A DNA stretch of 64,000 nt from an uncultured Clostridium sp. (GTDB taxonomy: Bacteria > Bacillota > Clostridia > TANB77 > CAG-508), in NCBI GenBank assembly GCA_948469315.1, contig CAOKLQ010000009.1, forward strand, positions 11,168 to 75,167, written 5' to 3'. The position numbers and the translations under genes are program-made. The notes beneath the pieces are model-generated. The model searched no databases. It was not told where the DNA came from and saw nothing but the letters and a program-made list of their open reading frames with translations. Of this stretch, positions 29,103 through 46,236 are shown piece by piece (within the stretch, counting starts at the first letter, position 1; each line of letters starts with the position of its first letter).

Positions 29103-30026
29103 ATGAAAATTGGAAAATTAGAAGAAGTAGATATTAGAGAATTATGGAAGCATGAACAATATAACTTTTCAGATTGGTTAGCTAAAAAGGAAAATATTGA
29201 AAACTTAAATAATATATTAGGATTAACTTTAGTTGATATTAGTAAAGAAACTTATGTAGGGACTTATAGATGTGACTTATTTGCTAAAGATGAAACAACA
29301 GGTACTAAGGTTATTATTGAAAACCAACTTGAAATATCTAATCATGATCATTTAGGAAAAATAATTACTTATGCTTCTGGATTAGATGCAAAAGTTATTG
29401 TATGGATTGTAAAAGAAGCAAGAGAAGAACACAGAAGTGCTATTGAATGGTTAAATAATAATACTAATAGCAATGCAAATTTCTTCCTAATAGAAATTCA
29501 TGCGTATAAAATAGGAGACTCAGATAAAGCTCCTATGTTTCAGGTTGTAGAACAACCAAATGACTTTATAAAGAAAAATAAGTCTTTCAATAATAATGAT
29601 AGCATGAATAAATCACAATCTCAGAGAATTGAATTTTGGAATCAATTTAATGATGTAATTATAGAAAGAGGAAAGCCATTTAATGTAAGAAAAGCCACTA
29701 CTGATCATTGGTATAATGTTGCTATAGGTACAAGTGAAGCCCATATTGATATTACGCTAGTTAATAAAGATTCTGTAATTGGTGTAGAATTATATATAAC
29801 TGATAATAAAGGATTATTTGATAAACTTTATAATAAAAAAGATGATATAGAAGCAGATTTAGGATTTAAATTAGATTGGAGGAGATTAGATAACAGTAAA
29901 GCTTCAAGAATAATTTATCATATTAAAGGGCTAAATTTTGAAGATCATAGTAATTATAATGAATTAATGAATAGGACAATAGATATAGCAGTATTAATGA
30001 GAGACACATTTAAAAAATACATATAA
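29103..30026 (+). CDS. DUF4268-type protein with N-terminal PD-(D/E)xK-like nuclease core
   Basis: The N-terminal half RCDLFAKDETTGTKVIIENQLEISNHDHLGKIITYASG matches the D...ExQ nuclease-like core seen in this family. The C-terminal half is FWNQFND...WYNVAIG...VELYI...DLGFKLDWRRL. It sits directly upstream of an R-M system. Confidence 0.65.
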   Translation: MKIGKLEEVDIRELWKHEQYNFSDWLAKKENIENLNNILGLTLVDISKETYVGTYRCDLFAKDETTGTKVIIENQLEISNHDHLGKIITYASGLDAKVIVWIVKEAREEHRSAIEWLNNNTNSNANFFLIEIHAYKIGDSDKAPMFQVVEQPNDFIKKNKSFNNNDSMNKSQSQRIEFWNQFNDVIIERGKPFNVRKATTDHWYNVAIGTSEAHIDITLVNKDSVIGVELYITDNKGLFDKLYNKKDDIEADLGFKLDWRRLDNSKASRIIYHIKGLNFEDHSNYNELMNRTIDIAVLMRDTFKKYI

Positions 30027-30079
30027 TATATATTTGAGTACTATATAAACAACTTATTGTATTATTATATTAAGTAAAG

Positions 30080-31885
30080 ATGGGAGAAAACATGGATACA
30101 AATAGATTAAAAATTTTAGCAAAAGTAATAGAAGAATCAAAAAAGTATATAGAAAATGAAAGCGAGATTCCTATTGAGTTTCAGAAAATATTGTTTCCTT
30201 CTGGAAGAAAGGAATGTGAGTTAGTTTATGCTGGAAAGGAAAGTGCTGAAGAAATAATATCAAAAGTAATTGCAGTTCCATTACAAGAAGAAAAGATATT
30301 TCCTTCAAATTATAAAAAGTCCCAAAATGACTGGATTAATAAATTGATTTTTGGAGATAATATACAAGTTTTAAAAAGTTTAGTTAAATATAAAGAAAAA
30401 GGAATGCTTAAAAATCCCGATGGAACAGATGGAATAAAATTAATTTACATTGATCCGCCTTTTTCAACAAGAAGAGATTTTAAAACTTCAAGTGAGGATC
30501 AAAAAGCGTATTCTGATAAAAAAGCTGGAGCAGACTTTCTAGAATGGTTAAGAAAAAGATTAATTTTATTAAAAGAGGTGCTTTGCGATGATGGATCAAT
30601 TTATGTACATTTAGATAATAAAAAAGTTGCTTATGTAAAAGTTTTAATGGATGAAATTTTTGGGGAAAACAATTTTAGAAGTTCGATAATTTGGGATACA
30701 TCAATTCCATATGTCGCAGGAAATAAATGGCTATCACCTAATTGGATTTATTCTCAAGCTACAATTTTATATTATACAAAGTCAAAAACAGACTATGTGT
30801 TTAATAAAGAATATGAAGAAATTATACAACCATCAGGAGACATTTCTAAAAAGCCTATAAAAGATGTATGGTGTGATATTAAAAACTTTGCAGGATTTTT
30901 AGGAGCTAAAGATTATAAAAGTAAATATCCAACACAAAAGCCAGAAGATTTAATAAAAAGAATAATTAAGGCTTCGTCAAATGAAGGAGATATTGTTTTA
31001 GATTGTTTTGCAGGATCTGGGACTACACCAGCTGTTGCAGAAAAGCTTAATAGAAAATGGATAGCAATTGATGTAGGAAAATTGTCAATTTATACTATTC
31101 AAAAAAGATTATTACATACGAAGAATATTAATCCATTTGCAGTATATTCAGCAGGACTATATGATGAAGAAAAATTAAACCAATTTGATGAATATAACTG
31201 GAAGTTATTTGTAATGCAATCATGGGGATGTACACCTAAATCAGAGAAAATTAAAAATTTTGAATTTGAGGGAACTAAAAATGGAGATTTAGTTAAAGTA
31301 TATTCACCACATGAGTTAAAAAAGATTGGAGCAAAAATTTCTATAGAAACATTAAATTCAATTTATTTAAGAATTGGAGAAGCTGCAGGTAGAAATGTAT
31401 TTATTATAGCACCTAAAGGAAGATTTGCTTTTGCAGAAGATGAAATTGAAATAGGAAATGTAACATTTAATATATTAAGAGTACCATATTCTATGTTAGC
31501 TAAATATACAGAAGACTTTTCTATTCCAATTCAGCCAAGAGATTCAAAAAATGTAAATGAAGCTGTTGAATCTATTGGATTTGACTTTGTTCAACCACCT
31601 GAAGTAGACTTTTTAATTAAAGATGATAATTTAATTATTAATAAATTTCAAAGTAATAGTAGAATAAAAGGTGAAGAAGAATCTTCTTTATCAATGGTTT
31701 TAATAGATTACAGTTATGATGGTAAGATATTTGATTTAGATGATGTTTTATATGAAAATAACTTTCATGAAAATAAAGCAAAATTTGATACAAGTAAAAT
31801 TGATAAAAAAGCCATGCTAATATTTATAGATAATGCAGGAAATGAAAGAAAGGTGGTAATAAATGAAGGACAAGATAAGAATTAA
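30080..31885 (+). CDS. mod: Type III R-M DNA methyltransferase (Mod; beta-class N6A/N4C MTase)
   Basis: Catalytic motif IV (IYIDPPFS) precedes the AdoMet motif I (DCFAGSGTT) with a variable region between, which is the beta-class order. The gene overlaps the downstream res by 23 nt. An alternative start at ATG 30092 sits just after GGGAGA. Confidence 0.85.
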   Translation: MGENMDTNRLKILAKVIEESKKYIENESEIPIEFQKILFPSGRKECELVYAGKESAEEIISKVIAVPLQEEKIFPSNYKKSQNDWINKLIFGDNIQVLKSLVKYKEKGMLKNPDGTDGIKLIYIDPPFSTRRDFKTSSEDQKAYSDKKAGADFLEWLRKRLILLKEVLCDDGSIYVHLDNKKVAYVKVLMDEIFGENNFRSSIIWDTSIPYVAGNKWLSPNWIYSQATILYYTKSKTDYVFNKEYEEIIQPSGDISKKPIKDVWCDIKNFAGFLGAKDYKSKYPTQKPEDLIKRIIKASSNEGDIVLDCFAGSGTTPAVAEKLNRKWIAIDVGKLSIYTIQKRLLHTKNINPFAVYSAGLYDEEKLNQFDEYNWKLFVMQSWGCTPKSEKIKNFEFEGTKNGDLVKVYSPHELKKIGAKISIETLNSIYLRIGEAAGRNVFIIAPKGRFAFAEDEIEIGNVTFNILRVPYSMLAKYTEDFSIPIQPRDSKNVNEAVESIGFDFVQPPEVDFLIKDDNLIINKFQSNSRIKGEEESSLSMVLIDYSYDGKIFDLDDVLYENNFHENKAKFDTSKIDKKAMLIFIDNAGNERKVVINEGQDKN

Positions 31886-34373
31886 AGAAAAGAACTTAGT
31901 TTTAGATGTTAGTGATAATGTAAATATAGAAGTATGGGATGAATCTAAGTATTATAATTTTGTTGATAATTTAGTAGGAAATAGGACCTACCAAAAAGAA
32001 GCAATACTAACTGCTTTGAAATTTATGTGCAGTGGTGAATATAAAAATACAAGTCAGTTAGCATATGAAAATTTTACAAAAAACGAATTAATTAAAGATG
32101 CATATGTAACATATGAAAACTTTGAAAGAAAGTTAAGTTTTCCTAATAGTTACTCAGCATCTATAGATTTAGCAACAGGAACAGGTAAAAGCTGGGTTAT
32201 GTATGCAATTGCTACAATAATGTTAGCTGAAGGAAAAGTAGATCAAGTATTAGTATTAGTGCCAAGTGTTACAATAGAAGAAGAACTAACAAAAAAATTT
32301 AGAAAATTTGCAATTGATGAAAATTTAAATGGTGCTTTAAAAAGTGTCCCACCAAAAATAACTAATGGATCTGAAAGTATAGTAAAAGGATGTATTTGTA
32401 TAGAAAATAGAGATGCTGTATATAAAAATTCAAGTAGTTCAATTTTAGATAGTTTAAATGGAAAAGGTCAAAAGACATTACTTTTATGTGATGAAGTCCA
32501 TCATGTATATTATTCTGAAGAAAACGAATGGAAATCATTTGTTGAAAAGATAAACTTTAAATATAATATTGGATTATCAGGAACATGCTATTATAAAGAT
32601 AATACATACTTTTCTAATGTTATATATAGATATTCGCTAAAACAAGCTATAGAAGATAGAAGAGTTAAATTGGTAGAATATGTTTCAGAAAGTAATATTC
32701 CAGTAAAAGATGAAGATAAGTGGAAAGTTATAATAAACTCTCATGAAGAAATAAAAAAGAAGATAAATTATCTACCATTAACACTTATAGTTACTGCAAA
32801 TGTAAATTCATGTAAAAAGAAAGCTAGTGAATTCAAAAGATTTTTAAAAGAATCTCTAAAATTAAATGATGAAGAAGTAAATGAAAAAGTTTTGATAATT
32901 CACTCAAAGTCTGATGCAGCATTAGATAGAATTAAATTAAAAAGTGTAGATAATTTAGATAGTAAAGTTGAATGGATATTTTCAGTTTCAATGCTAACAG
33001 AAGGCTGGGATGTAAAAAGAGTATTTCAAATTGTTCCTGACGAAGAAAGAGCATTTAATTCAAAATTATTAATAGCACAAGTATTAGGTAGAGGATTAAG
33101 AATACCAGTAAATTGGGATTATCAAGAAATGGGATTACCTAAAGTTACTATATTTAATCATGCAAAATGGGCAAGTAGTGTGAAAAAACTAGTTGACGAA
33201 GTTTTAGAAATTGAAAAGAAATTGTCAAATTCAATAATAGAAGATTCAGAATATAATTTTGAATTATTAAATGTTGATTATAAGCCAGATAAAATAGTCA
33301 CTAAAATAAAGAAAGAGGGAATGTATAACTTATTTGATAAAGGATATATTGTATTGCCAACTGATAGTCAAAATGAAACAATTAATGCAGATTTTGTTGA
33401 GGCTAATACTGATAAGATTAGATCGTGGATTACAACTATTTATCATAAGACTTATACTATAGATGATGTAGCAACTGCTATGTGGTATAAATTTGATGAA
33501 TTATCTGATGGTGAAGATAAGAATGAAGAACTTTGTAAAAAATATAAAGAAAAGTGGACAGTAGATAAATTAAAGAAAGTAATAAGTTTATCATTAGAGA
33601 AATCGGGAAATAATGAGATAACTGAAAAGCTAAAGCAGAAATTTCTATCTTCTATTGGAGTAATTTTTAGACAAGGTAGTTCATTTGTTGATTACAAAAT
33701 AATACCAGATAATTTTACTCAAATATCAACTAAAAGTATGCATAAAGATTATGTGAGTGCAAGTGCTTTAAACAAGGAGAAGGTTCTATTTTGGACATCA
33801 AGAACTGAGAAATATTTAAGTGAAGAAGAAATTGAGTTTTTTAATGAAGTTATAGATACTACTAATGCATATAGGCAAAAAGAAGTTAGAAATATTTACG
33901 ATTTTAAAACACCTCAAACATTTGTTATAGCAGACAGTGATCCAGAAAAGGAATTTATAAAGAAATTGACTGAGTTAAGAAATAACAATATAAAAAGTTG
34001 GGTAAAATCAAATTCTAAAGGATTCTACTCTTTTGAATACTCATGGAGAAAAGGTGAACATGCTCAAAGAGGGATATTCAATCCTGACTTCTTTATAATT
34101 TTTATGAATAGAGTTTTAGTAGTTGAAATAAAAAGTGATGAGCAAATAGCTAATCCTGAACCTGAAAATATAGGAAAACACAAAGCTGCAATAGAGCACT
34201 TTAAAGCTATAAATGAAAAGCTACATAAAGATAACAAGGATATAAGATATAAATTTACAATGTTAACTCCTAGGAACTATGAAGTCTTCTTTAATAAGTT
34301 GAATTCTGGAGACGTTTCTGATATAGATAGTTTTAATAGTGAATTAGATGCAACAATTTTGGAAAATAACTAA
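31863..34373 (+). CDS. res: Type III restriction enzyme Res subunit (SF2 helicase + C-terminal PD-(D/E)xK nuclease)
   Basis: It has Walker A LATGTGKSW, DEAH box LLCDEVHH and helicase motif VI QVLGRGLR. The C-terminal nuclease motif is NPDFFIIF...VLVVEIKSDE. Confidence 0.85.
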   Translation: MKDKIRIKEKNLVLDVSDNVNIEVWDESKYYNFVDNLVGNRTYQKEAILTALKFMCSGEYKNTSQLAYENFTKNELIKDAYVTYENFERKLSFPNSYSASIDLATGTGKSWVMYAIATIMLAEGKVDQVLVLVPSVTIEEELTKKFRKFAIDENLNGALKSVPPKITNGSESIVKGCICIENRDAVYKNSSSSILDSLNGKGQKTLLLCDEVHHVYYSEENEWKSFVEKINFKYNIGLSGTCYYKDNTYFSNVIYRYSLKQAIEDRRVKLVEYVSESNIPVKDEDKWKVIINSHEEIKKKINYLPLTLIVTANVNSCKKKASEFKRFLKESLKLNDEEVNEKVLIIHSKSDAALDRIKLKSVDNLDSKVEWIFSVSMLTEGWDVKRVFQIVPDEERAFNSKLLIAQVLGRGLRIPVNWDYQEMGLPKVTIFNHAKWASSVKKLVDEVLEIEKKLSNSIIEDSEYNFELLNVDYKPDKIVTKIKKEGMYNLFDKGYIVLPTDSQNETINADFVEANTDKIRSWITTIYHKTYTIDDVATAMWYKFDELSDGEDKNEELCKKYKEKWTVDKLKKVISLSLEKSGNNEITEKLKQKFLSSIGVIFRQGSSFVDYKIIPDNFTQISTKSMHKDYVSASALNKEKVLFWTSRTEKYLSEEEIEFFNEVIDTTNAYRQKEVRNIYDFKTPQTFVIADSDPEKEFIKKLTELRNNNIKSWVKSNSKGFYSFEYSWRKGEHAQRGIFNPDFFIIFMNRVLVVEIKSDEQIANPEPENIGKHKAAIEHFKAINEKLHKDNKDIRYKFTMLTPRNYEVFFNKLNSGDVSDIDSFNSELDATILENN

Positions 34374-34505: not shown

Positions 34506-36783
34506 ATGGATAAAATAATACAAATAATATCAGAAGAATTAAATATAAAATATACACGGAGTAGAAGCTGCAGTAAAATTAATAGATGAAGGAAACACTA
34601 TACCATTTATTGCACGTTACAGAAAAGAAGCAACAGGAGGTCTAAGTGATGAAATTTTAAGAGAACTAGGAGAAAGACTAAATTACCTAAGAAATTTAGA
34701 ACAAAGAAAACAAGAAGTAATAAAAAGCATAGAAGAACAAGGAAAACTAACAGATAAAATAAAAAAATCTGTAGAAATTGCAAAAACCTTAGCAGAAGTA
34801 GAAGATATATATAGACCATACAAACAAAAGAAAAAAACAAGAGCAACAATAGCAAAAGCTAAAGGATTAGAGCCACTAGCTAAAATAATATATGAACAAA
34901 AAGAAACCAAAGACATAAACGAAATTGCAAAACAATACATAAATGTAGGGGTGGCGTCCTTAGACGACCCAAATATATCAAAACCTACAGACAAATCTAT
35001 GTCAGACACCGTAGGGGTGAACCACCTGTGTGACCTAAACGCACCAGAACCTACAACAAACAAAACATTAAATGACAACACTGTCTCAACTGCACAAGAA
35101 GCAATTGGGGGAGCCCTAGACATAATTGCAGAAATAATATCAGACGAACCAAAATATAGAAAAGAAATAAAACGTTTATGTTATAAAATGGGACTTATAA
35201 AAACAAAAGCAGTAGATGAAGAAGGAAAATCAAGTTATGAAATGTATTACGACTTCTCAGAAACAATTAAAACAATCCCAAGCCATAGAATACTTGCAAT
35301 AAATAGAGGAGAAAAAGAAAAATTTTTAAAAGTATCGTTAGAAAAACCAGAAGACCAAATAATAGGGTATATAAATAAAGATGTAATAAAAGGGAAAACA
35401 CAATTTACAACCATGTTAGAAGAAACTATACAAGATAGTTATAAAAGACTAATAGAGCCATCTATAGATAGAGAAATACGATCAGACCTAAGTGACAAAG
35501 CTGAAGAAAAAGCAATAAAAGTATTTGGACATAATGCAAAACAATTATTATTAGGAGCACCAATAAAAGACATAGTAGTTATGGGATTTGATCCTGCATA
35601 TAGAACAGGATGTAAAATAGCAATTATAGATGATACAGGTAAGTTATTAGACTATACAACAGTATATCCAACTCAGCCTCAAAACGATGTAGAGAAAGCT
35701 CAAAAAGAATTATTAAAACTAATAGAAAAATATAGTGTAAATATGATAGCAATAGGTAATGGAACAGCTTCAAGAGAATCTGAAATGTTTGTAGCAGAAA
35801 TGATAAAAAATGCTAAACATGAAGTGTTATATACAATTGTAAGTGAAGCAGGAGCATCAGTCTATTCAGCATCAAAACTTGCAACAGAGGAATATCCAGA
35901 TATCAATGTTTCAATAAGAGGAGCAATCTCAATTGCAAGACGTTTGCAAGATCCACTTGCTGAACTTGTAAAAATAGATCCAAAAGCAATAGGAGTAGGA
36001 CAATATCAACATGATGTAAATCAAAAGAAACTAGAGGAAAGTCTAGCAGGAGTGGTAGAAGGTGCAGTTAACAAAGTAGGAGTAGATGTGAACACAGCAA
36101 CATCATCACTTCTTTCATATATATCAGGTCTAAATAAAACAATAAGTAAAAACATTGTAAAATATAGGGACGAAAATGGAAAACTAAAAAATAGAAAACA
36201 GTTATTAAAAGTGCCTAAGCTTGGAAAAGTAGCATATGAGCAATGTGCAGGATTTTTAAGAATAATAGGAGGAGATAATCCAATAGATACTACTGCTGTT
36301 CACCCAGAAAGTTATGAAGCAGTAGAAAAGTTACTACAAAAAATAGGTTATCAAAAAGAAGATTTATTGCATAAAGAAAAAATAAAAAAATTAAGAGCAA
36401 AATTAAATGAGTTAAAGTTAAATGAGGTTGCTGGGGAATTAGAAATAGGGGAAATGACATTATCGGACATTATAGAAGAACTATCAAGACCAGGAAGGGA
36501 CGTAAGAGATGAAATGCCAAAACCTATATTAAGACAAGATGTACTAAAATTTGAAGATCTAAAAGAAGGAATGATATTAACAGGGACTATAAGAAATGTA
36601 ATAGATTTTGGAGCATTTGTGGATATAGGAGTAAAACATGATGGACTTGTCCACATATCAGAACTATCAGACAAATTCGTAAAAAATCCATCAGATATAG
36701 TGTCAATTGGAGATATTGTAAAAGTAAAAGTAATAGGAATAGATAATGAAAAACAAAAAGTAAAATTATCAATGAAAATATAA
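34506..36783 (+). CDS. tex: Tex/YhgF-like transcription accessory protein (S1 domain), read across a +1 junction at 34557-34560 and carrying a ~44-codon in-frame repeat insertion
   Basis: ATG 34506 follows AAGGAGA and gives MDKIIQIISEELNIKYT in frame 0. The +1 frame gives GVEAAVKLIDEGNTIPFIARYRKEATGGLSDE... through the YqgF/RuvC-like, HhH and C-terminal S1 domains (GTIRNVIDFGAFVDIG...GLVHISELS). The ORF track shows only 34951..36783 because that frame has no start codon before 34951. Confidence 0.85.
34557..34560 (+). other. +1 frame junction at in-frame CGG-A (ACA CGG A) in tex
   Basis: Ten nt lie between ELNIK and VEAAVKL where orthologues have 3 residues. Skipping C gives ELNIKYTGVEAAVKL. 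Frame 0 stops 10 codons later. Confidence 0.6.
34944..35076. repeat. Two tandem ~66-nt GC-rich repeat units inserted in frame within tex
   Basis: The units begin TGTAGGGGTGGCGTCC... and CGTAGGGGTGAACCACC... and end ...GTCAGACAC / ...AAATGAC. They encode VGVASLDDPNISKPTDKSMSDTVGVNHLCDLNAPEPTTNKTLND between conserved AKQYIN and VSTAQEAIGGALDIIAE. Confidence 0.7.
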
Positions 36784-36793
36784 AATCAAATAC

Positions 36794-36981
36794 CGTAGAG
36801 GCGGACGGCCCTGTCCGCCCGAACAAATTAAAACCGACAAACAAACCAACGTCAAATATTGTAGGGGGTTGGCGTACCTAAGGGTATAACGGATTTGTAT
36901 TCTCACATTCGTTCGAACAACTCCGAAATTTCCGACGACCCGAAAACATTCTAACTAACAAATAAACAAACGTCAGACATC
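36794..36981. repeat. Two more units of the same GC-rich repeat family in the tex 3' intergenic region, the second with a 52-nt nested insert
   Basis: Unit one is CGTAGAGGCGGACGGCCCTGTCCGCCCGAACAAATTAAAACCGACAAACAAACCAACGTCAAATAT (hairpin GGCGGAC/GTCCGCC). Unit two is TGTAGGGGGTTGGCGTACCTAA[52 nt]GACGACCCGAAAACATTCTAACTAACAAATAAACAAACGTCAGACATC. Both align position by position with the units inside tex. Confidence 0.7.
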
Positions 36982-37006: not shown

Positions 37007-37384
37007 ATGAAAAATCAAATAATAAAAAAGATAAGCATTAATTTTTTTATATTAATGCTTATAATATTAACATATAAATTAAATATTCGAGTATGTATAA
37101 TAAATAAATTATTCTATATTCCTTGTCCTTGTTGTGGAATAACAAGATCTTTTATTTATTTACTAAAAGGAGAAATGGCAATGTCTCTAAAGTATAACAT
37201 ACTTACAATTCCTTTGTTAATTTTTTATATTATATATATGTTTTTAAAAATTAGAGATATTATAAAAAAGGACAGTTCTTTAAATGTGAAGATAACAAAA
37301 TATAAGTCATGTCTTATAATAATTGCAGTAATTTTATGTGTTATAAGTGGAATAAAAAATATTTTTAATCCATTGTTATATTAA
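37007..37384 (+). CDS. DUF2752-family membrane protein
   Basis: It is 125 aa with the signature CPCCGITRSF followed by TM helices. Confidence 0.75.
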   Translation: MKNQIIKKISINFFILMLIILTYKLNIRVCIINKLFYIPCPCCGITRSFIYLLKGEMAMSLKYNILTIPLLIFYIIYMFLKIRDIIKKDSSLNVKITKYKSCLIIIAVILCVISGIKNIFNPLLY

Positions 37385-39597: not shown

Positions 39598-41595
39598 TTA
39601 AATTGGTATACTTATATAAAAACAAGTTCCTTTTCCTTCTTGAGACTCAAAACTAATATCTCCATTAAAATGAGCTTTTATTGTAGAATACGACATAAAC
39701 AGTCCAAGTCCAGAGCCATTCTTGCCTTTTGTTGTAATCATTTCTTTAAATAATTTAGACTTAACTTCTTTGCTCATTCCCATTCCAAAGTCTTGAACTG
39801 AAATTAAAAGACTTCCATCTTTTTTATCAAAATTTAAGTTAATTTGATTGCCTGTTTGTCCATTATAGCTTTGGATTGCATTTGAAATCATGTTATTTAC
39901 AACTTGTACTAAACTATTAACATTTCCATCTAAAACAGTATTTTTATCAATATTTAAGTTTATATTTAACGTTATTAACGAGTTTTTAAGTTCATGTTTC
40001 ATTAATATATCTACACGTTTTATTAATTCATCTATTGTAAAATCAACATCATTATCTGAAGATAATGTAACTGCTTGTCCTTTAACTGTAGTTATAATAT
40101 CTGACATATATTCTGTATATTCTTTTATTTTATTAACCCAAGTTTGCATATCTTTTGCAATTTCATGATGATCTTCATTTGTAACATCTAGATCACCAAT
40201 AGAACTATCATATTCTTTTATTAAATCATTTAGACCTTCTGTTGCTCCAGAAATAGACATTATGGGTGTTTTTAGGTTATGAGATATTCCACCAATTAAT
40301 TGTCCAAGTGATGCTAAACGTTCTTTTTCCATAAGCATATTTTGGTTATTTTGTAGTTGTTTAATATTTTGTGCAGTTAATGTTTGAATTTTATTAAATG
40401 ATTTAGTTAGATCACTTATTTCGTCATTTGCAGTTATTGGTAAATTTTTTGAGTATATTATATCATTTGAATTAGATATATTCTCCATACCCTTAACAAC
40501 ATCTTTTATATCATTTGAAAATGATTTACCTATATAAAATATAAATAATCCATTAAATATCATAAGTGCAATTGCTACCATAATAAAAGGTGTAATAAAC
40601 GTATTTTCAAATACAAAATATCTTATTCCAACAAAGTAGTCACCCAAGGTAGTATGTATTTTGGTAACACAACCTTCAACATTTTGTCCATAGTATTCAT
40701 AAACATGTCCATCTGTATTTTCATAAAATAATTTAATATAATTTTTTAAAAAGGTATTTAATTCTACTGGAGAATAATATACTTGGTTTGTGTCACAAGA
40801 AAGTATGAAGATTGTATCATTTTGTGAGTTTAAAGTAATATTGCTTAATATATTTTTTGCTTCTTCTAAATCATAAGTAGTATTATCTAAAAATCTTGAA
40901 TCTAGTTCTTGTTTATAAAAATAATTTATAAGATTACTTTTTTCTGTTGTCATTAAAGATAATGCTATTAACAAAATTAATACAAAAGAATATAGAAAAA
41001 GCGGTAATATTTGTATTAATAATTTCTTATATAAATTTAACCTAATTCCATTTGAATCATTTTTTCCTAAAGAATCTGTTTGGATTAATTTTGTAACAAA
41101 GAAATTTCTACTAACCATATAGGATATAATTGCAAATATTGCAGACAAAGAAAATACAACAGTAGATATTCTTATTATTAATTCAAATTCAGTATTAAAG
41201 ACAACTAGCAATAATGCGACTATAATAGAAGGAACAAAGAGTTCTATTATAAACATAACGAAAGGATAGTTAAAACACTTTTTTCTGATTTTTTTAATTT
41301 CGTTAGCCGAAAGGTTAGCTATATTTTTGCTAGAAATATTTAATTTTCTATATACAAGTCGTAAAGTAATATAAAGCATACATGTTAAAATTGAAATTAG
41401 AATTATACATTGATCTGTATATTTAATTCCAACTGTTTGAATTTGAAAGTCATTATCTATTGAGTTTACAGGATAATTTAGTATTTTAGGCAATGCAAAA
41501 TATAAAAGTATACAAGTAAATATAAAAATTATTGTATTAAGTAATGCTAATTTTTTCGGAGTATTTATATTAAATATTTTTTTTGTTTGTTTCAT
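39598..41595 (-). CDS. Membrane sensor histidine kinase
   Basis: ATG 41595 follows GGTGG. There are several N-terminal TM helices and a ~110-aa extracytoplasmic segment. The H-box is GGISHNLKTPI, the N-box NNMISNAIQSY, G1 VQDFGMGM and G2 GSGLGLFMS. The start overlaps the NRPS stop by 26 nt. Confidence 0.88.
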   Translation of the reverse strand: MKQTKKIFNINTPKKLALLNTIIFIFTCILLYFALPKILNYPVNSIDNDFQIQTVGIKYTDQCIILISILTCMLYITLRLVYRKLNISSKNIANLSANEIKKIRKKCFNYPFVMFIIELFVPSIIVALLLVVFNTEFELIIRISTVVFSLSAIFAIISYMVSRNFFVTKLIQTDSLGKNDSNGIRLNLYKKLLIQILPLFLYSFVLILLIALSLMTTEKSNLINYFYKQELDSRFLDNTTYDLEEAKNILSNITLNSQNDTIFILSCDTNQVYYSPVELNTFLKNYIKLFYENTDGHVYEYYGQNVEGCVTKIHTTLGDYFVGIRYFVFENTFITPFIMVAIALMIFNGLFIFYIGKSFSNDIKDVVKGMENISNSNDIIYSKNLPITANDEISDLTKSFNKIQTLTAQNIKQLQNNQNMLMEKERLASLGQLIGGISHNLKTPIMSISGATEGLNDLIKEYDSSIGDLDVTNEDHHEIAKDMQTWVNKIKEYTEYMSDIITTVKGQAVTLSSDNDVDFTIDELIKRVDILMKHELKNSLITLNINLNIDKNTVLDGNVNSLVQVVNNMISNAIQSYNGQTGNQINLNFDKKDGSLLISVQDFGMGMSKEVKSKLFKEMITTKGKNGSGLGLFMSYSTIKAHFNGDISFESQEGKGTCFYISIPI

Positions 41596-44500
41596 TATTA
41601 TTACCACCTATAAAATTATTTTTTTCTAAATATTTAATTAATTTTTCAATATATTCATTAGTAATTTGTGGCCAAATTAAATTGTTTTTTAAAAGTAGCT
41701 TATTTGTAATAGTATTATTTAGTTCAACATTACCATTATTATTTAAATTATTCAAATAACTTGTTATTCCAAAATATAATTTATTTGAAGACATAAGTTT
41801 ATCTTTAAATTCACACATATCAACAGACTTAATATTATAACCAGTATCAGTTATAAATTTTACCAAAGTTTTACCATTTAAATAATTTGAATTAAATAAA
41901 TGATATATTTCTAAATTTTTATTTTGTAAATTTATTAAATTTACAATAAAATTAGCACAAATATCAACAGGTGTAAATTCAAAATTAAAATTTAATAATT
42001 CCTTTGGAACGCAGCCTAAGCAAATAAAACTAGTTAATCTGTTTAAAAATGCATTTTCTTTAGCATTTTCTTGGAACATTCCATCTGTAAATCTGTTAGT
42101 AATATTCCCAATTCTATAAATTGATGCAACAAGTCCATTTTTGCACTCATTTATAATTAATTTTTCAGCTTCAAATTTACTTCTTACATATACATTATCT
42201 TTATATTTTTGACCAATATATAAATTAGACTCATCAAACTTAGAATTGTTTGGAGTTTCGACTAATCCATATCCAGATACAGATAATGTAGAAACATAAT
42301 GCAGTGGTATATTATTCTTTTTGCAAAATGTAACTACTTGTTTAGTTCCCTTTACATTTGTTTTGAAAAATTCATCATAACTACCATAATGTTTTACAAT
42401 AGCTGCTGTATCTATAACACAATCAATGTTATTACTTATTTTATCATATGTTTGTGAAGATAAACCTAAATTATCTTGCAAAATATTACCTTCAATAATA
42501 TTAATACGATTTTTATATTTTAAAAACTCATCTTCTGAAAAATATAATTTAAACTTAGAGTTTAATCTTTCATATGAAGAAATGTTACTTTTTTCTCTAA
42601 TTATACAATATATTTGTGATGTAGTTAACACAAGCAAGTTATGCAAAATATGAATTCCTAAAAAGCCTGTTGAACCAAATAATAAAATATTATTATAGTT
42701 AAACTTTTTATTTATAGGTTTGCTTATTTGGGAAATATCTGGATAAGTATTTTTATTATAATAATCTGAATTTGTATGGTCTAATATGTAATTTGCAAGT
42801 TCTCTAATTGTTTTATATTCATAAAAGACTTGAGTATTAACATCTATACCATTTGTGTAAAGCATAGTTTGGGCTTTTATTAAAATAAGAGAATCTATAT
42901 AATATTCAAATATATTAGCAGTTACACTTATTTTATCTTCTACATTTAATAATTCATAAAAAATGTTTTGTAATAACTCTTCTAAATTATTCTCAGGTGG
43001 CGTATAAGGAGCCTGTTTTATTTCTGGAATAGGTAAAAGTTTTTTATCTACTTTTCCATTAACACTAAGAGGTATATTTTCTAATCTAATAAAATATTTT
43101 GGAATCATGTATAATGGTAAGCTCTTACTTAAGAATAAATCTAAATTATCTAAGTCCTTATCGCAAATAGAGGTATAATAAGCACATAATATTTTTTGAT
43201 TATCTATATTAATTGTTGTTATATAACAATCTTTTATTTTATTATGTTTTAGAAGATTAGATTGAATTTCTCCTATTTCAATTCTAAATCCATTTATTTT
43301 AACTTGAAAATCTGAACGTCCAAAATACTCCATAGTTCCATTATAATATAACTTAGCTAAATCACCAGTTTTATATAATATTTTTGTGTTATCAAAAGGG
43401 CTTATTATAAAAGAACATTTATTGGCATTTTCTAAATTTATATATCCAGAAGATAAACAGTCTCCACCTATATACATTTGTCCAAGCATACCACATGGGA
43501 CTAAAGATAAATTATTATCTAAAATATAAATATTAACATTATCTATAGGTTTTCCAATTGGAATGGAAGTATATTTTTTATCTTTTTTTGAATATTCATG
43601 TATCATACAGCCAACAGTTGCCTCTGTAGGTCCATATTCATTATAAATATGTAAATCATTTATAAATTTAGATGAGATTTTTTCACAGGACTCTATGGAA
43701 AGCAGATCTCCACCTACAATCAATTTATTTACAATAGATTCAGAACAATCTATATCTAATAATAAATTTAAATGTGCAGGAGTAAGTTTTATAATATGAA
43801 CCTTTCTATCTTCTATTATAGACTTTAGTAATAATTGAGGATTTTCATTTTCATATATATATATTGTATTACCAGTTGTTAAAGGCGTATAAATAGAAGT
43901 TACAGTTAAGTCAAAAGCAATTGATGAATACAATGGAAAATTAGTATTTTTGCCTGAAACATATTGTCTTTTACAAAAGCTAATATAGTTTGATAAACTT
44001 TTATTACATATACTAACCCCCTTAGGATTTCCAGTAGAACCAGAAGTATATATTATATATGCTAAAGAATCATCTTTAATTTTTGAGGTATTAAAAGCTT
44101 TAGAAAAATTAGTGTCTAAAATTTCTAAATCAATTATATATTTGCTATCTTTTATTTGACTTATGCTTTTTTTATTTTTATTATTAGATAAGACTATTTT
44201 AGCGTTACTATTTTGAATAATGTATTTTACCCTATGTATAGGATATTTAACATCAATAGGAATATAGCAAGCTTCAAGTTTTAGTGTAGCTAAAATACTA
44301 ACAATTAGTTCTATAGAGTTTTCCAAAAACAAGCAAATTTTATCATAAGGCTTAATGTTCTTTTTAGATAATATGAAAGATAAATTGTTAGCCATACAAT
44401 TTATCTCTTTATATGTATAAGACTTTTCTTTATCACATATAGCAATATTATTAGGATTAAGTTTTACTTGATTTTCAAAATCTCTTATAACAGGAATATT

Positions 44501-45847
44501 AATTATATCTAATTTTGTATTATTATATTTATTTAATATAAAATCTTTTTCATCAGGTGATAAAATATCTATATTTTTTAGTAATATATAAGGATTATTA
44601 ATAACCTGATTAATTATGTGCATAAGTCTTTTATGTAGTAAAATTATATCTTTTTCGTGGAATAAATCTAATTTATAATCATAGTAAATAGAAAGTAATC
44701 CTGTATCATCCATATCATGTATATGTATATCTAAATTATTAGCAACTGTATTATTAAAAATCCAATTTGTATGATATTTTATATTAGATGTAGAATTATT
44801 ATTTCTAGCATTTTGGTAAGATAAAGCTACATCATATAAATTTTTAGAAAAGTTAAATTTCTTTCTTAAATCATTAAGTAAAATATTAAAAGGATATCTT
44901 TGGTTTCTAAAAATAGAAAATTCTGTATTTGAAAAGTCTTTTAATAACGAAATATAAGTATTATTTAAGTCAATATGAGTTTTAAAAGGAACTGTACTTA
45001 TAAACATTCCAATAGTATTTTTTTGGCTAAAATTACATCTATTAAGTACAGGAGTTCCAACAATTGGATTACTAACATTATTAATTTTAGATAAATAAAT
45101 ACTAAGTGCACTCATAAAAATACTATAAGCAGATGTTTTATATTCTGCAAAAAAGTTAGATAAACTATTACAGAAGTTTTTACTTAAACAATAAGATTTT
45201 CTTTTAGCTAAGCAAGAATTGGAATTTGTATCACAAATATAAGAAAAAGAAAGTGAGTCAAACTTAGAATCCCAAAATTCTTTTGATTTTAAAAATTTGG
45301 AACTATTTAAATATTCTTTTTCTGAATTTATAAAATCTATGTAAGAATAAGATGTATTATCAACTGGTTTATTATTTAATAAATTATCATAATTTGTAAT
45401 TATTTGATTTGTTAAAACAGTCATAGTCCATGCATCACAAATAATATGATGCAATTTTGCAATAAATCCTCCATGGCCATTTGGAAATTTAAAAATCGTA
45501 AAACTAAATAAATTATTATCAATAAGATCAAAACAACTATTAGTAACTTTAGTTTCTAAGTGATTAAGCTGTTTTTCATCTTCTAACTCTATTATTTCAA
45601 AATCTTCATCAACAAAACAATTAACATATTGTAATACAGAATCATTTTTAAGTAAAAGTCTTAATCTTATACCATCATTATTTTGTATAAAAATATTAAT
45701 AGATTTTTTTAATAATTCAAAATCTACTTTTTCATCTATGGTAAGAGTACCAACAAGGTTACCTATAGTACTTCCTTTATAATATTGCTCAGTAAGCCAA
45801 ATTGATTTTTGCGGGTTAGTTAATTCAAATAGTTGTTTTTTTTCCAT
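41570..45847 (-). CDS. Single-module non-ribosomal peptide synthetase, domain order C-A-T-R (terminal thioester reductase)
   Basis: The C domain has HHIICDAWT (HHxxxD). The A-domain cores are YIIYTSGSTGNPKG, NEYGPTE, YKTGD and GRSDFQVKINGFRIEIGEI. The carrier-protein serine motif is YYIDSLILIK. The R domain has LLFGSTGFLGIHIL (NAD(P)-binding) and YVRSK (YxxxK). ATG 45847 follows AGAGGGA; the ORF track GTG at 45856 is too close to the RBS. Confidence 0.9.
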   Translation of the reverse strand: MEKKQLFELTNPQKSIWLTEQYYKGSTIGNLVGTLTIDEKVDFELLKKSINIFIQNNDGIRLRLLLKNDSVLQYVNCFVDEDFEIIELEDEKQLNHLETKVTNSCFDLIDNNLFSFTIFKFPNGHGGFIAKLHHIICDAWTMTVLTNQIITNYDNLLNNKPVDNTSYSYIDFINSEKEYLNSSKFLKSKEFWDSKFDSLSFSYICDTNSNSCLAKRKSYCLSKNFCNSLSNFFAEYKTSAYSIFMSALSIYLSKINNVSNPIVGTPVLNRCNFSQKNTIGMFISTVPFKTHIDLNNTYISLLKDFSNTEFSIFRNQRYPFNILLNDLRKKFNFSKNLYDVALSYQNARNNNSTSNIKYHTNWIFNNTVANNLDIHIHDMDDTGLLSIYYDYKLDLFHEKDIILLHKRLMHIINQVINNPYILLKNIDILSPDEKDFILNKYNNTKLDIINIPVIRDFENQVKLNPNNIAICDKEKSYTYKEINCMANNLSFILSKKNIKPYDKICLFLENSIELIVSILATLKLEACYIPIDVKYPIHRVKYIIQNSNAKIVLSNNKNKKSISQIKDSKYIIDLEILDTNFSKAFNTSKIKDDSLAYIIYTSGSTGNPKGVSICNKSLSNYISFCKRQYVSGKNTNFPLYSSIAFDLTVTSIYTPLTTGNTIYIYENENPQLLLKSIIEDRKVHIIKLTPAHLNLLLDIDCSESIVNKLIVGGDLLSIESCEKISSKFINDLHIYNEYGPTEATVGCMIHEYSKKDKKYTSIPIGKPIDNVNIYILDNNLSLVPCGMLGQMYIGGDCLSSGYINLENANKCSFIISPFDNTKILYKTGDLAKLYYNGTMEYFGRSDFQVKINGFRIEIGEIQSNLLKHNKIKDCYITTINIDNQKILCAYYTSICDKDLDNLDLFLSKSLPLYMIPKYFIRLENIPLSVNGKVDKKLLPIPEIKQAPYTPPENNLEELLQNIFYELLNVEDKISVTANIFEYYIDSLILIKAQTMLYTNGIDVNTQVFYEYKTIRELANYILDHTNSDYYNKNTYPDISQISKPINKKFNYNNILLFGSTGFLGIHILHNLLVLTTSQIYCIIREKSNISSYERLNSKFKLYFSEDEFLKYKNRINIIEGNILQDNLGLSSQTYDKISNNIDCVIDTAAIVKHYGSYDEFFKTNVKGTKQVVTFCKKNNIPLHYVSTLSVSGYGLVETPNNSKFDESNLYIGQKYKDNVYVRSKFEAEKLIINECKNGLVASIYRIGNITNRFTDGMFQENAKENAFLNRLTSFICLGCVPKELLNFNFEFTPVDICANFIVNLINLQNKNLEIYHLFNSNYLNGKTLVKFITDTGYNIKSVDMCEFKDKLMSSNKLYFGITSYLNNLNNNGNVELNNTITNKLLLKNNLIWPQITNEYIEKLIKYLEKNNFIGGNNNETNKKNI

Positions 45848-46236
45848 AAAATTCACAGTCCCTCTTTATTTTATTAATTTTGAAAATTATATACTATAAT
45901 ATATTATAAATCAAACAAATTTGACAAAATTTGCGAAAAAATATAACTATTTAAAAATAAGCTTAGAATACTAAATTTGAATAGTAGAAAAATATAGGGA
46001 GTAATAGGAAGATTGCCTTTTTATAGAAATTTTTTCAAAGAGTATTCTTCCTAAATATGTATTTAATAATAAAATTTGGAAATAATAAAAAAGAGATCCT
46101 AAGATTTTCTAAAACATGAAAATCTTAAGAAAATCTAAGGCTCTCCATAATTATCTTCTACAGAAAATTCTCATTCATTATGAGAATTTTCCTAGAATAT
46201 AAAAAAGAAACAAAAATACATATTTTGGAGGTTTTT

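Follow-up and report, generated by a model that had tools for sequence, protein, structure and literature searches.

The 64-kb window analysed here (64,000 nt of contig CAOKLQ010000009.1 of an uncultured Clostridium sp.; "the window" always denotes this whole stretch) carries a tex gene followed by a gene for a DUF2752 protein. A reading made from the sequence alone had noticed four copies of a GC-rich hairpin repeat at this locus, two in tandem within tex and two just past its stop codon (Table 1). Our analysis identifies these units, U1 to U4, as repetitive extragenic palindromes (REPs) of the GTAG-tagged type. A unit is ~66 nt or 22 codons long; all four open with (C/T)GTAG(G/A)GG, followed by a GC-rich hairpin or what is left of it and by a common 40-nt A/C-rich tail, which is C-rich and G-poor, contains AACC(T/G)ACA and terminates in GTCA(G/A)A(C/T)A(C/T). 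The units form two head-to-tail dimers on the plus strand, all four having the same orientation. With a G+C content of 44–45% they stand out from the rest of tex (30.5%) and from the window (26.5%), as had been remarked before.

Table 1. Features of the tex locus, in window coordinates.
Feature	Position	Strand	Description
tex start	34506..34589	+	ATG at 34506; frame closes after 27 codons through a 1-nt insertion at ~34557-34560
Main tex frame	34549..36783	+	745 codons, no internal stop; stop codon 36781-36783; Tex_N, Tex_central_region, YqgF, HhH and S1 domains
U1	34944-35009	+	In tex, in frame; GTAG head 34945-34948, imperfect hairpin 34949-34970, A/C-rich tail ending in GTCAGACAC
U2	35010-~35076	+	In tex, in frame; GTAG head 35011-35014, decayed hairpin, AACCTACA at 35048-35055
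U3	36794-36859	+	Begins 10 nt past the tex stop; GTAG 36795-36798, perfect 8-bp stem 36800-36807/36812-36819, then tail
U4	36860-36981	+	GTAG 36861-36864, left arm to 36878, right arm GACGACCC 36934-36941, tail end GTCAGACATC
DUF2752 gene	37007..37384	+	Downstream of tex
Insert-encoded peptide stretch			VGVASLDDPNISK...

The four-unit plan is real and is backed by shuffled sequences as well as by an independent covariance model. The pattern GTAGRGG-N16-CCYRAA-N8-AACCKACA matches U1, U2 and U3 only, collinearly and without gaps, that is three times as compared to 0.00 matches expected from 100 shuffles. As this pattern was taken from the units themselves and is to that extent circular, two non-circular tests were added. 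With U3 as sole query, U1 was the top other match in the window (E = 0.0098). A covariance model (R1) built solely from REPs of other organisms (n = 34) and run on both strands of the window returned U3, U1, U2 and U4 as matches 1, 2, 3 and 6, with E-values of 1.3e-8 (28.9 bits), 0.038, 0.46 and 7.9, respectively. Neither a profile of the units nor the foreign-REP model revealed a fifth unit in the window. Pairwise identity between the units amounts to only 55–62%, indicating that the copies are old.

The dimer within tex is an insertion. The closest 120 of about 8000 Tex homologues are nearly all 724–727 aa long, and all nine orthologues that were aligned are devoid of the segment and possess a short, length-variable charged linker in place of VGVASL...KTLND; the linker of tex orthologues is a low-complexity site that varies in length. 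In L003, the nearest relative devoid of the segment, whose Tex is 85% identical, DNA alignment shows that the intragenic and the 3'-flank segments are both absent, and the spacing between tex and the DUF2752 gene is 15 nt as compared to 223 nt in the window. The possibility that the segment is a linker typical of the lineage, which had been named as the finding that would speak against an insertion, is thereby set aside. The insertion keeps the frame, as proposed, and is smaller than the ~44 codons first estimated: the native linker of L003 and the beginning of the Pfam Tex_central_region model both align with the final ~13 residues of the "insert", which leaves a net gain of ~35 aa, and U2 from about 35061 onward is probably native tex linker. 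A structural check, also proposed earlier, gave a consistent picture. In the AlphaFold model the insert (residues 131–173) is a coil with predicted local distance difference test (pLDDT) values of 25–34, flanked by helices at 80–89; the model is poor overall (mean pLDDT 52.5), and only this local contrast around the insert was used. The extra Tex segment is repeat-derived and not a new domain.

The main tex frame is open through both U1 and U2, and the same frame (GTA-GGG-...) is also open in the intergenic U3. In the units one forward frame always begins with TAG, and a reverse frame is likewise open. That the tex frame is open results from the T-poor tail together with the GTA-GGG phasing, and no special selection is needed to explain it. 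A HMMER search of 1.84 billion representative proteins with the 44-aa peptide yielded no other carrier; the sole match, P0121, was rejected as a chance match to a eukaryote-like tandem-repeat open reading frame (ORF), and a word-index search with the same peptide provided no candidate. Given a single intragenic case, no other carrier of the peptide and an openness that stems from the T-poor tail, there is no evidence for the earlier suggestion that the element is selected for open reading frames. The milder suggestion, i.e. that it is tolerated in frame, agrees with the open frame through U1 and U2 but is uncertain, as tex is frameshifted near codon 18.

This 1-nt frameshift after codon 17 is common to all three assemblies that cover the stretch, namely the window plus two independent contigs from Logan; the site reads ACACGGAGTAGAAGC in the window, L001 and L002, and ACTC-AAGTAGAAGC in L003. 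The first in-frame ATG, GTG or TTG codon after the shift is GTG 34951, located within U1. It was rejected as a new tex start, as a purine-rich stretch directly abuts the GTG and leaves no spacing, and a programmed +1 frameshift at ACA-CGG-A was likewise discarded because there is no slippery site. Therefore, tex may be a pseudogene of recent origin. The frameshift is probably recent, because the remaining 745 codons are intact, and the REP insertion is probably older, because the copies are much decayed. The tex sequences of the window and L001 show 61 differences; 59 of these fall in 35431–36201, where they cause 33 synonymous and 15 non-synonymous codon changes; this tract inside tex looks like a recombination tract.

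The four hairpins are preserved to different degrees. U3 has a perfect hairpin with 8 bp and the 4-nt loop GCCC (fold z = -2.6), which starts 16 nt past the tex stop codon. The hairpin of U1 is imperfect, being bulged and mismatched (z = -2.5), that of U2 has decayed (z = -0.7), and that of U4 is interrupted in its loop by ~50–55 extra nt at 36879–36933, which agrees with the nested insert described previously. The latter has an 8-bp hairpin of its own (CGGATTTG / CAACTCCG) and no second copy in the window. Published criteria for REP searches comprise a GT[AG]G tetranucleotide 0–2 nt 5' of the hairpin, a basal stem that is paired throughout and spans at least 7 bp, a loop of 2–5 nt and a GC-rich base (PMC6006769). 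The tetranucleotide is present in all four units, and U3 displays every one of these features.

Intact relatives of the units are found in other Clostridia. Over 30 nt, the core of U3 shares 93% identity with a REP that occurs 23 times on one replicon of Vescimonas fastidiosa. A 40-kb stretch of this replicon contains 24 intergenic GTAG hairpins, some of them arranged head-to-tail with a period of ~50 nt and some as inverted pairs, and hairpins there are preceded by GTAG far more often than by any other tetramer (23 of 208 occurrences). In Monoglobus pectinilyticus (L097), at a locus found by a transposase search and hence independently of the unit pattern, the REP CGTAGGGGCGGAT-tccat-ATCCGCCCGAACAA... 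(29.3 bits) precedes a truncated Y1_Tnp gene by 90 nt and recurs 15 nt past the stop codon of a methylase gene. In the same region (L097, 1977–6590) the truncated Y1 transposase gene has a DNA methyltransferase gene on either side; these two are near-duplicates, the same REP follows both, and REPs are also present within the annotated coding sequence of the transposase. At a metagenome locus (L028) a REP (26.2 bits) overlaps the 3' end of a Y1_Tnp ORF.

Further relatives come from sister strains in human gut metagenomes, with 80–84% identical Tex proteins and 27–29% G+C. These strains carry intact REPs (35 bits) in the tex 3' flank and at two other intergenic sites, often directly behind the T-runs of terminators and at a density of one to three per 22 kb; no such REPs were detected in one of them, L104. 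They include the types GTAG-GGGTCGGCG-tcct-CGACGACCC and GTAG-GGGCAGACG-cctc-TGTCTGCCC. Among strains with identical or near-identical Tex proteins the tex 3' flank is polymorphic, containing an inverted REP pair (L100, 12270–12365), a single REP (L110, 12265) or none (L104, 3786–3838). Thus, REPs have turned over at tex in these strains. U3 corresponds to the second type, U1 is one deletion, one substitution and one insertion apart from the first, and the 14-mer TTTCCGACGACCCG of U4 is identical to part of an intact REP in L100. Judged by these matches, U1 and U4 are worn versions of the sister-strain types, and U2, too, can be read as a worn copy of an intact type of these strains.

The REP family is common in Clostridia, with the same GC-rich hairpin types whatever the G+C content of the host, and this accounts for the contrast between the units and a genome of 26% G+C. 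An identical 26-nt REP, GTAGGGGTCGGCGTCCTCGACGACCC, was observed both in L105–L109 (61–67% G+C) and in L110–L116 (28% G+C), and several further hairpin types likewise recur across genomes. The presence of the 26-mer in contigs of 61–67% G+C means that the base composition of the element is a property of the family and not of the host. Contigs of 61% G+C that are filed as viral (L086, 3828–4187; also L060, L080 and L095) contain head-to-tail arrays of GTAG hairpins with a period of 56 nt; viral contigs gave no match to the strict unit pattern.

Searches for complete units, tail included, gave little. In 185,579 species genomes, a collection that evidently lacks the species of the window, the strict unit pattern retrieved two stretches, one of which is due to chance and the other a REP of a Ruminococcus metagenome-assembled genome. 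A relaxed pattern retrieved 34 stretches from metagenomes, mostly by chance; about eight have real GTAG hairpins, and their tail match is forced by the relaxed pattern and carries no evidential value. A BLAST search of the plasmid collection with U1–U2 returned no match.

We consider it likely, with a probability of roughly 0.78, that the units represent two head-to-tail dimers of decayed GTAG-tagged REPs, composed of a GC-rich hairpin and a 40-nt A/C-rich tail confined to this lineage, and linked to a REP-associated tyrosine transposase (RAYT). Copies would have spread as single-stranded hairpin DNA through the activity of RAYT, i.e. TnpA(REP), a Y1 HUH transposase that would be encoded elsewhere in the genome. 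One dimer would have entered the linker of variable length that joins the N-terminal to the central region of Tex, and may have persisted there because its length is a multiple of three, because it has no stop codon in frame and because it encodes a disordered loop. The second dimer would have settled directly past the tex stop codon, which is a typical position for REPs and a recurrent REP site in the sister strains. The copies have decayed since, and nothing points to recent activity. The intragenic copy most likely persists as a neutral passenger, whereas the 3' copy could at most provide, through U3, a stabilising stem-loop at the mRNA 3' end. This scheme is modelled on established REP biology (PMC3333891, PMC8266576, PMC3733652).

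Several observations weigh against this interpretation. The hairpins of three of the four units (U1, U2 and U4) deviate from the strict REP criteria. The tails are more alike than the hairpins (69% versus 52%), which simple copying of whole units does not explain. A tail-only hidden Markov model (HMM) detected nothing in Clostridial REP loci, and the idea that the tail is conserved across genera was dropped upon this result. A motif scan revealed no RAYT gene in the window; the same scan of the sister loci and a tblastn search of the Vescimonas replicon were negative too. The dimers are direct repeats and not the inverted doublets by which REPINs (REP doublets forming hairpins) are recognized. 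As tex is frameshifted, it is uncertain whether the insert was tolerated in a working protein. Finally, the DNA of this species that was covered comprises the window (64 kb) plus overlapping contigs that amount to about 25 kb, and it contains four units at one locus; dispersal in the host genome is therefore unproven.

Among the other explanations, a local and transposase-free origin survives best, although we regard it as unlikely. A single REP with its flank at the 3' end of tex would have been amplified in tandem, followed by ectopic recombination or gene conversion 1.8 kb upstream into tex. This route would fit the confinement of all four units to 2 kb, the tail that they have in common and that is missing from REPs elsewhere, the use of the tex 3' flank as a REP site already in the sister strains, and the tract at 35431–36201. 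However, hairpin types and their order differ between the two dimers, with an A-type followed by one of unknown type in tex and a B-type followed by an A-type in the flank; in addition, the identity between units is as low as 55–62%, and no long flanking homology is visible.

It is more improbable still that the units belong to another kind of non-autonomous element, that is a MITE (a miniature transposable element of the inverted-repeat kind) that has short inverted ends and a target duplication, or a palindrome-associated element derived from IS200/IS605, rather than to RAYT-linked REPs. Such an origin is brought to mind by the head of U1 and U2, whose (T/C)GTAGG has its complement in a CCTACA situated 35 nt downstream, and by imperfect direct repeats around both dimers (ACATAAATG / ACATTAAATG and ATCAAAT / ATCAAAAT). 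The inverted ends, however, reach 6 nt at most, with imperfect versions in U3 and U4; the repeats on the flanks are not exact either and are of a kind likely to match by chance in DNA of 74% A+T; and head and hairpin match REPs that adjoin Y1 transposase genes. The head/CCTACA pairing in U1 and U2 could be the remnant of an inverted partner. Hence, of the label "MITE/REP-like" chosen in the sequence-only reading, the REP part holds and can be narrowed to GTAG-tagged REPs, on the strength of the independent model and the intact relatives, whereas a classical MITE is not supported.

It is also very unlikely that the units are a functional cis-acting RNA (a terminator, attenuator or small RNA) that has been retained for the regulation of tex. 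The strong stem-loop of U3, 16 nt past the stop codon, and the C-rich, G-poor tails, which resemble Rho-loading sites, would be compatible with such a role, but what comes after the hairpins is A/C-rich (CGAACAAA, CAAATAT and the like), and none has the T-run of an intrinsic terminator. Moreover, decay or interruption affects three of the four hairpins, the entire 3' region folds no better than shuffled sequences (z = -0.3), relatives lack the element, and Rfam returned no family, neither at gathering scores for the whole window nor at E-values up to 5 for the repeat region. That a lineage-specific low-complexity Tex linker resembles the intergenic repeat by mere chance is scarcely credible: the site is length-variable and of low complexity in orthologues and pairwise identity is modest, but every unit has GTAG head, hairpin remnant and tail in collinear order, U1 and U2 take ranks two and three of the window with the independent model, and the G+C content is 44% in a genome of 26%.

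As to the wider surroundings, a DUF4268 gene and a type III restriction-modification pair, made up of a methylase and a ResIII helicase, occupy 29103–34373 between an ABC-F gene and tex; this block is not found at the corresponding position in L003 or the sister strains. Three ORFs of very large size (1593, 1579 and 3186 aa) and a gene resembling nonribosomal peptide synthetases (1428 aa) are located at 15–24358 and 41570–45856. The region 52660–64000, past two tRNA genes, encodes RepA_N, TnpV, NikA/MobC and a relaxase, followed by an integrase, a second RepA_N and Mob_Pre. It looks like two mobilisable elements, which have no near match in the plasmid collection; the best match for Tex in this collection is from Acetoanaerobium (56%).

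The units share with known GTAG-tagged REPs and REP-RAYT systems (Nunvar 2010, PMC2817692; Di Nocera 2013, PMC3733652; Ton-Hoang 2012, PMC3333891; Corneloup 2021, PMC8266576) the GTAG head directly 5' of a GC-rich hairpin, the placement of copies just past stop codons, the grouping of copies, relatives that adjoin Y1 transposase genes, and occasional in-frame intragenic copies encoding 20–80 aa. They differ by their very low-G+C, Clostridia-like host, the 40-nt A/C-rich tail, the head-to-tail arrangement, the decayed state of the copies and the lack of a cognate RAYT gene in the window. Like the bacterial interspersed mosaic elements (BIMEs) of E. coli, the units combine different hairpin types with a conserved extra-palindromic linker in short clusters; however, REPs alternate in orientation in BIMEs, whereas all four units point one way. 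REPINs (Bertels and Rainey 2011, PMC3116915) have the REP as their building block, and inverted doublets of the same family do occur in L100 and Vescimonas, in contrast to the direct repeats of the window.

The earlier comparison with Rickettsia palindromic elements (RPEs) is apt as an analogy. RPEs, too, are palindromic repeats that reside in frame in conserved genes, adding a peptide and keeping the frame, and RPE-4 and RPE-6 are CGTC-tagged (PMC3733652). They are, however, alphaproteobacterial, 100–150 nt long and present in many intragenic copies per genome, whereas here the tag is GTAG and a single intragenic case is found, in a frameshifted gene. Intragenic in-frame REPs with GTAG or CGTC tags, including dimers and clusters that encode 20–82 aa, have been published (PMC3733652). 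Thus, in-frame intragenic REPs are already known, and the case in tex is a further example and not a new kind of element.

A bolder hypothesis, which we regard as doubtful at present, is that a single GTAG-REP system is shared by gut Clostridia, with 26-nt hairpins that are identical between genomes of 28% and 61–67% G+C through horizontal spread of REPs and RAYT, and that in the species of the window REP and tail have fused into a 66-nt, 22-codon stop-free module able to colonise coding sequence, as a Gram-positive counterpart of RPEs. The sharing of hairpins across base compositions hints at horizontal spread among gut Clostridia. If true, such spread would contradict the mostly vertical picture drawn from Proteobacteria, and the identical REP hairpins shared between genomes provide a modest lead in this direction.

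The 2013 survey of REPs lists no Firmicutes (PMC3733652), and group 1 RAYTs have been reported in Clostridia. The findings at tex extend GTAG-type REPs, and their occasional capture in frame by a gene, to very A+T-rich Clostridia-like bacteria, in which they are poorly described. For annotation, the extra segment of Tex can now be traced to a repeat, and elements of this kind account for odd GC-rich islands and for spurious or extended ORFs in such genomes.

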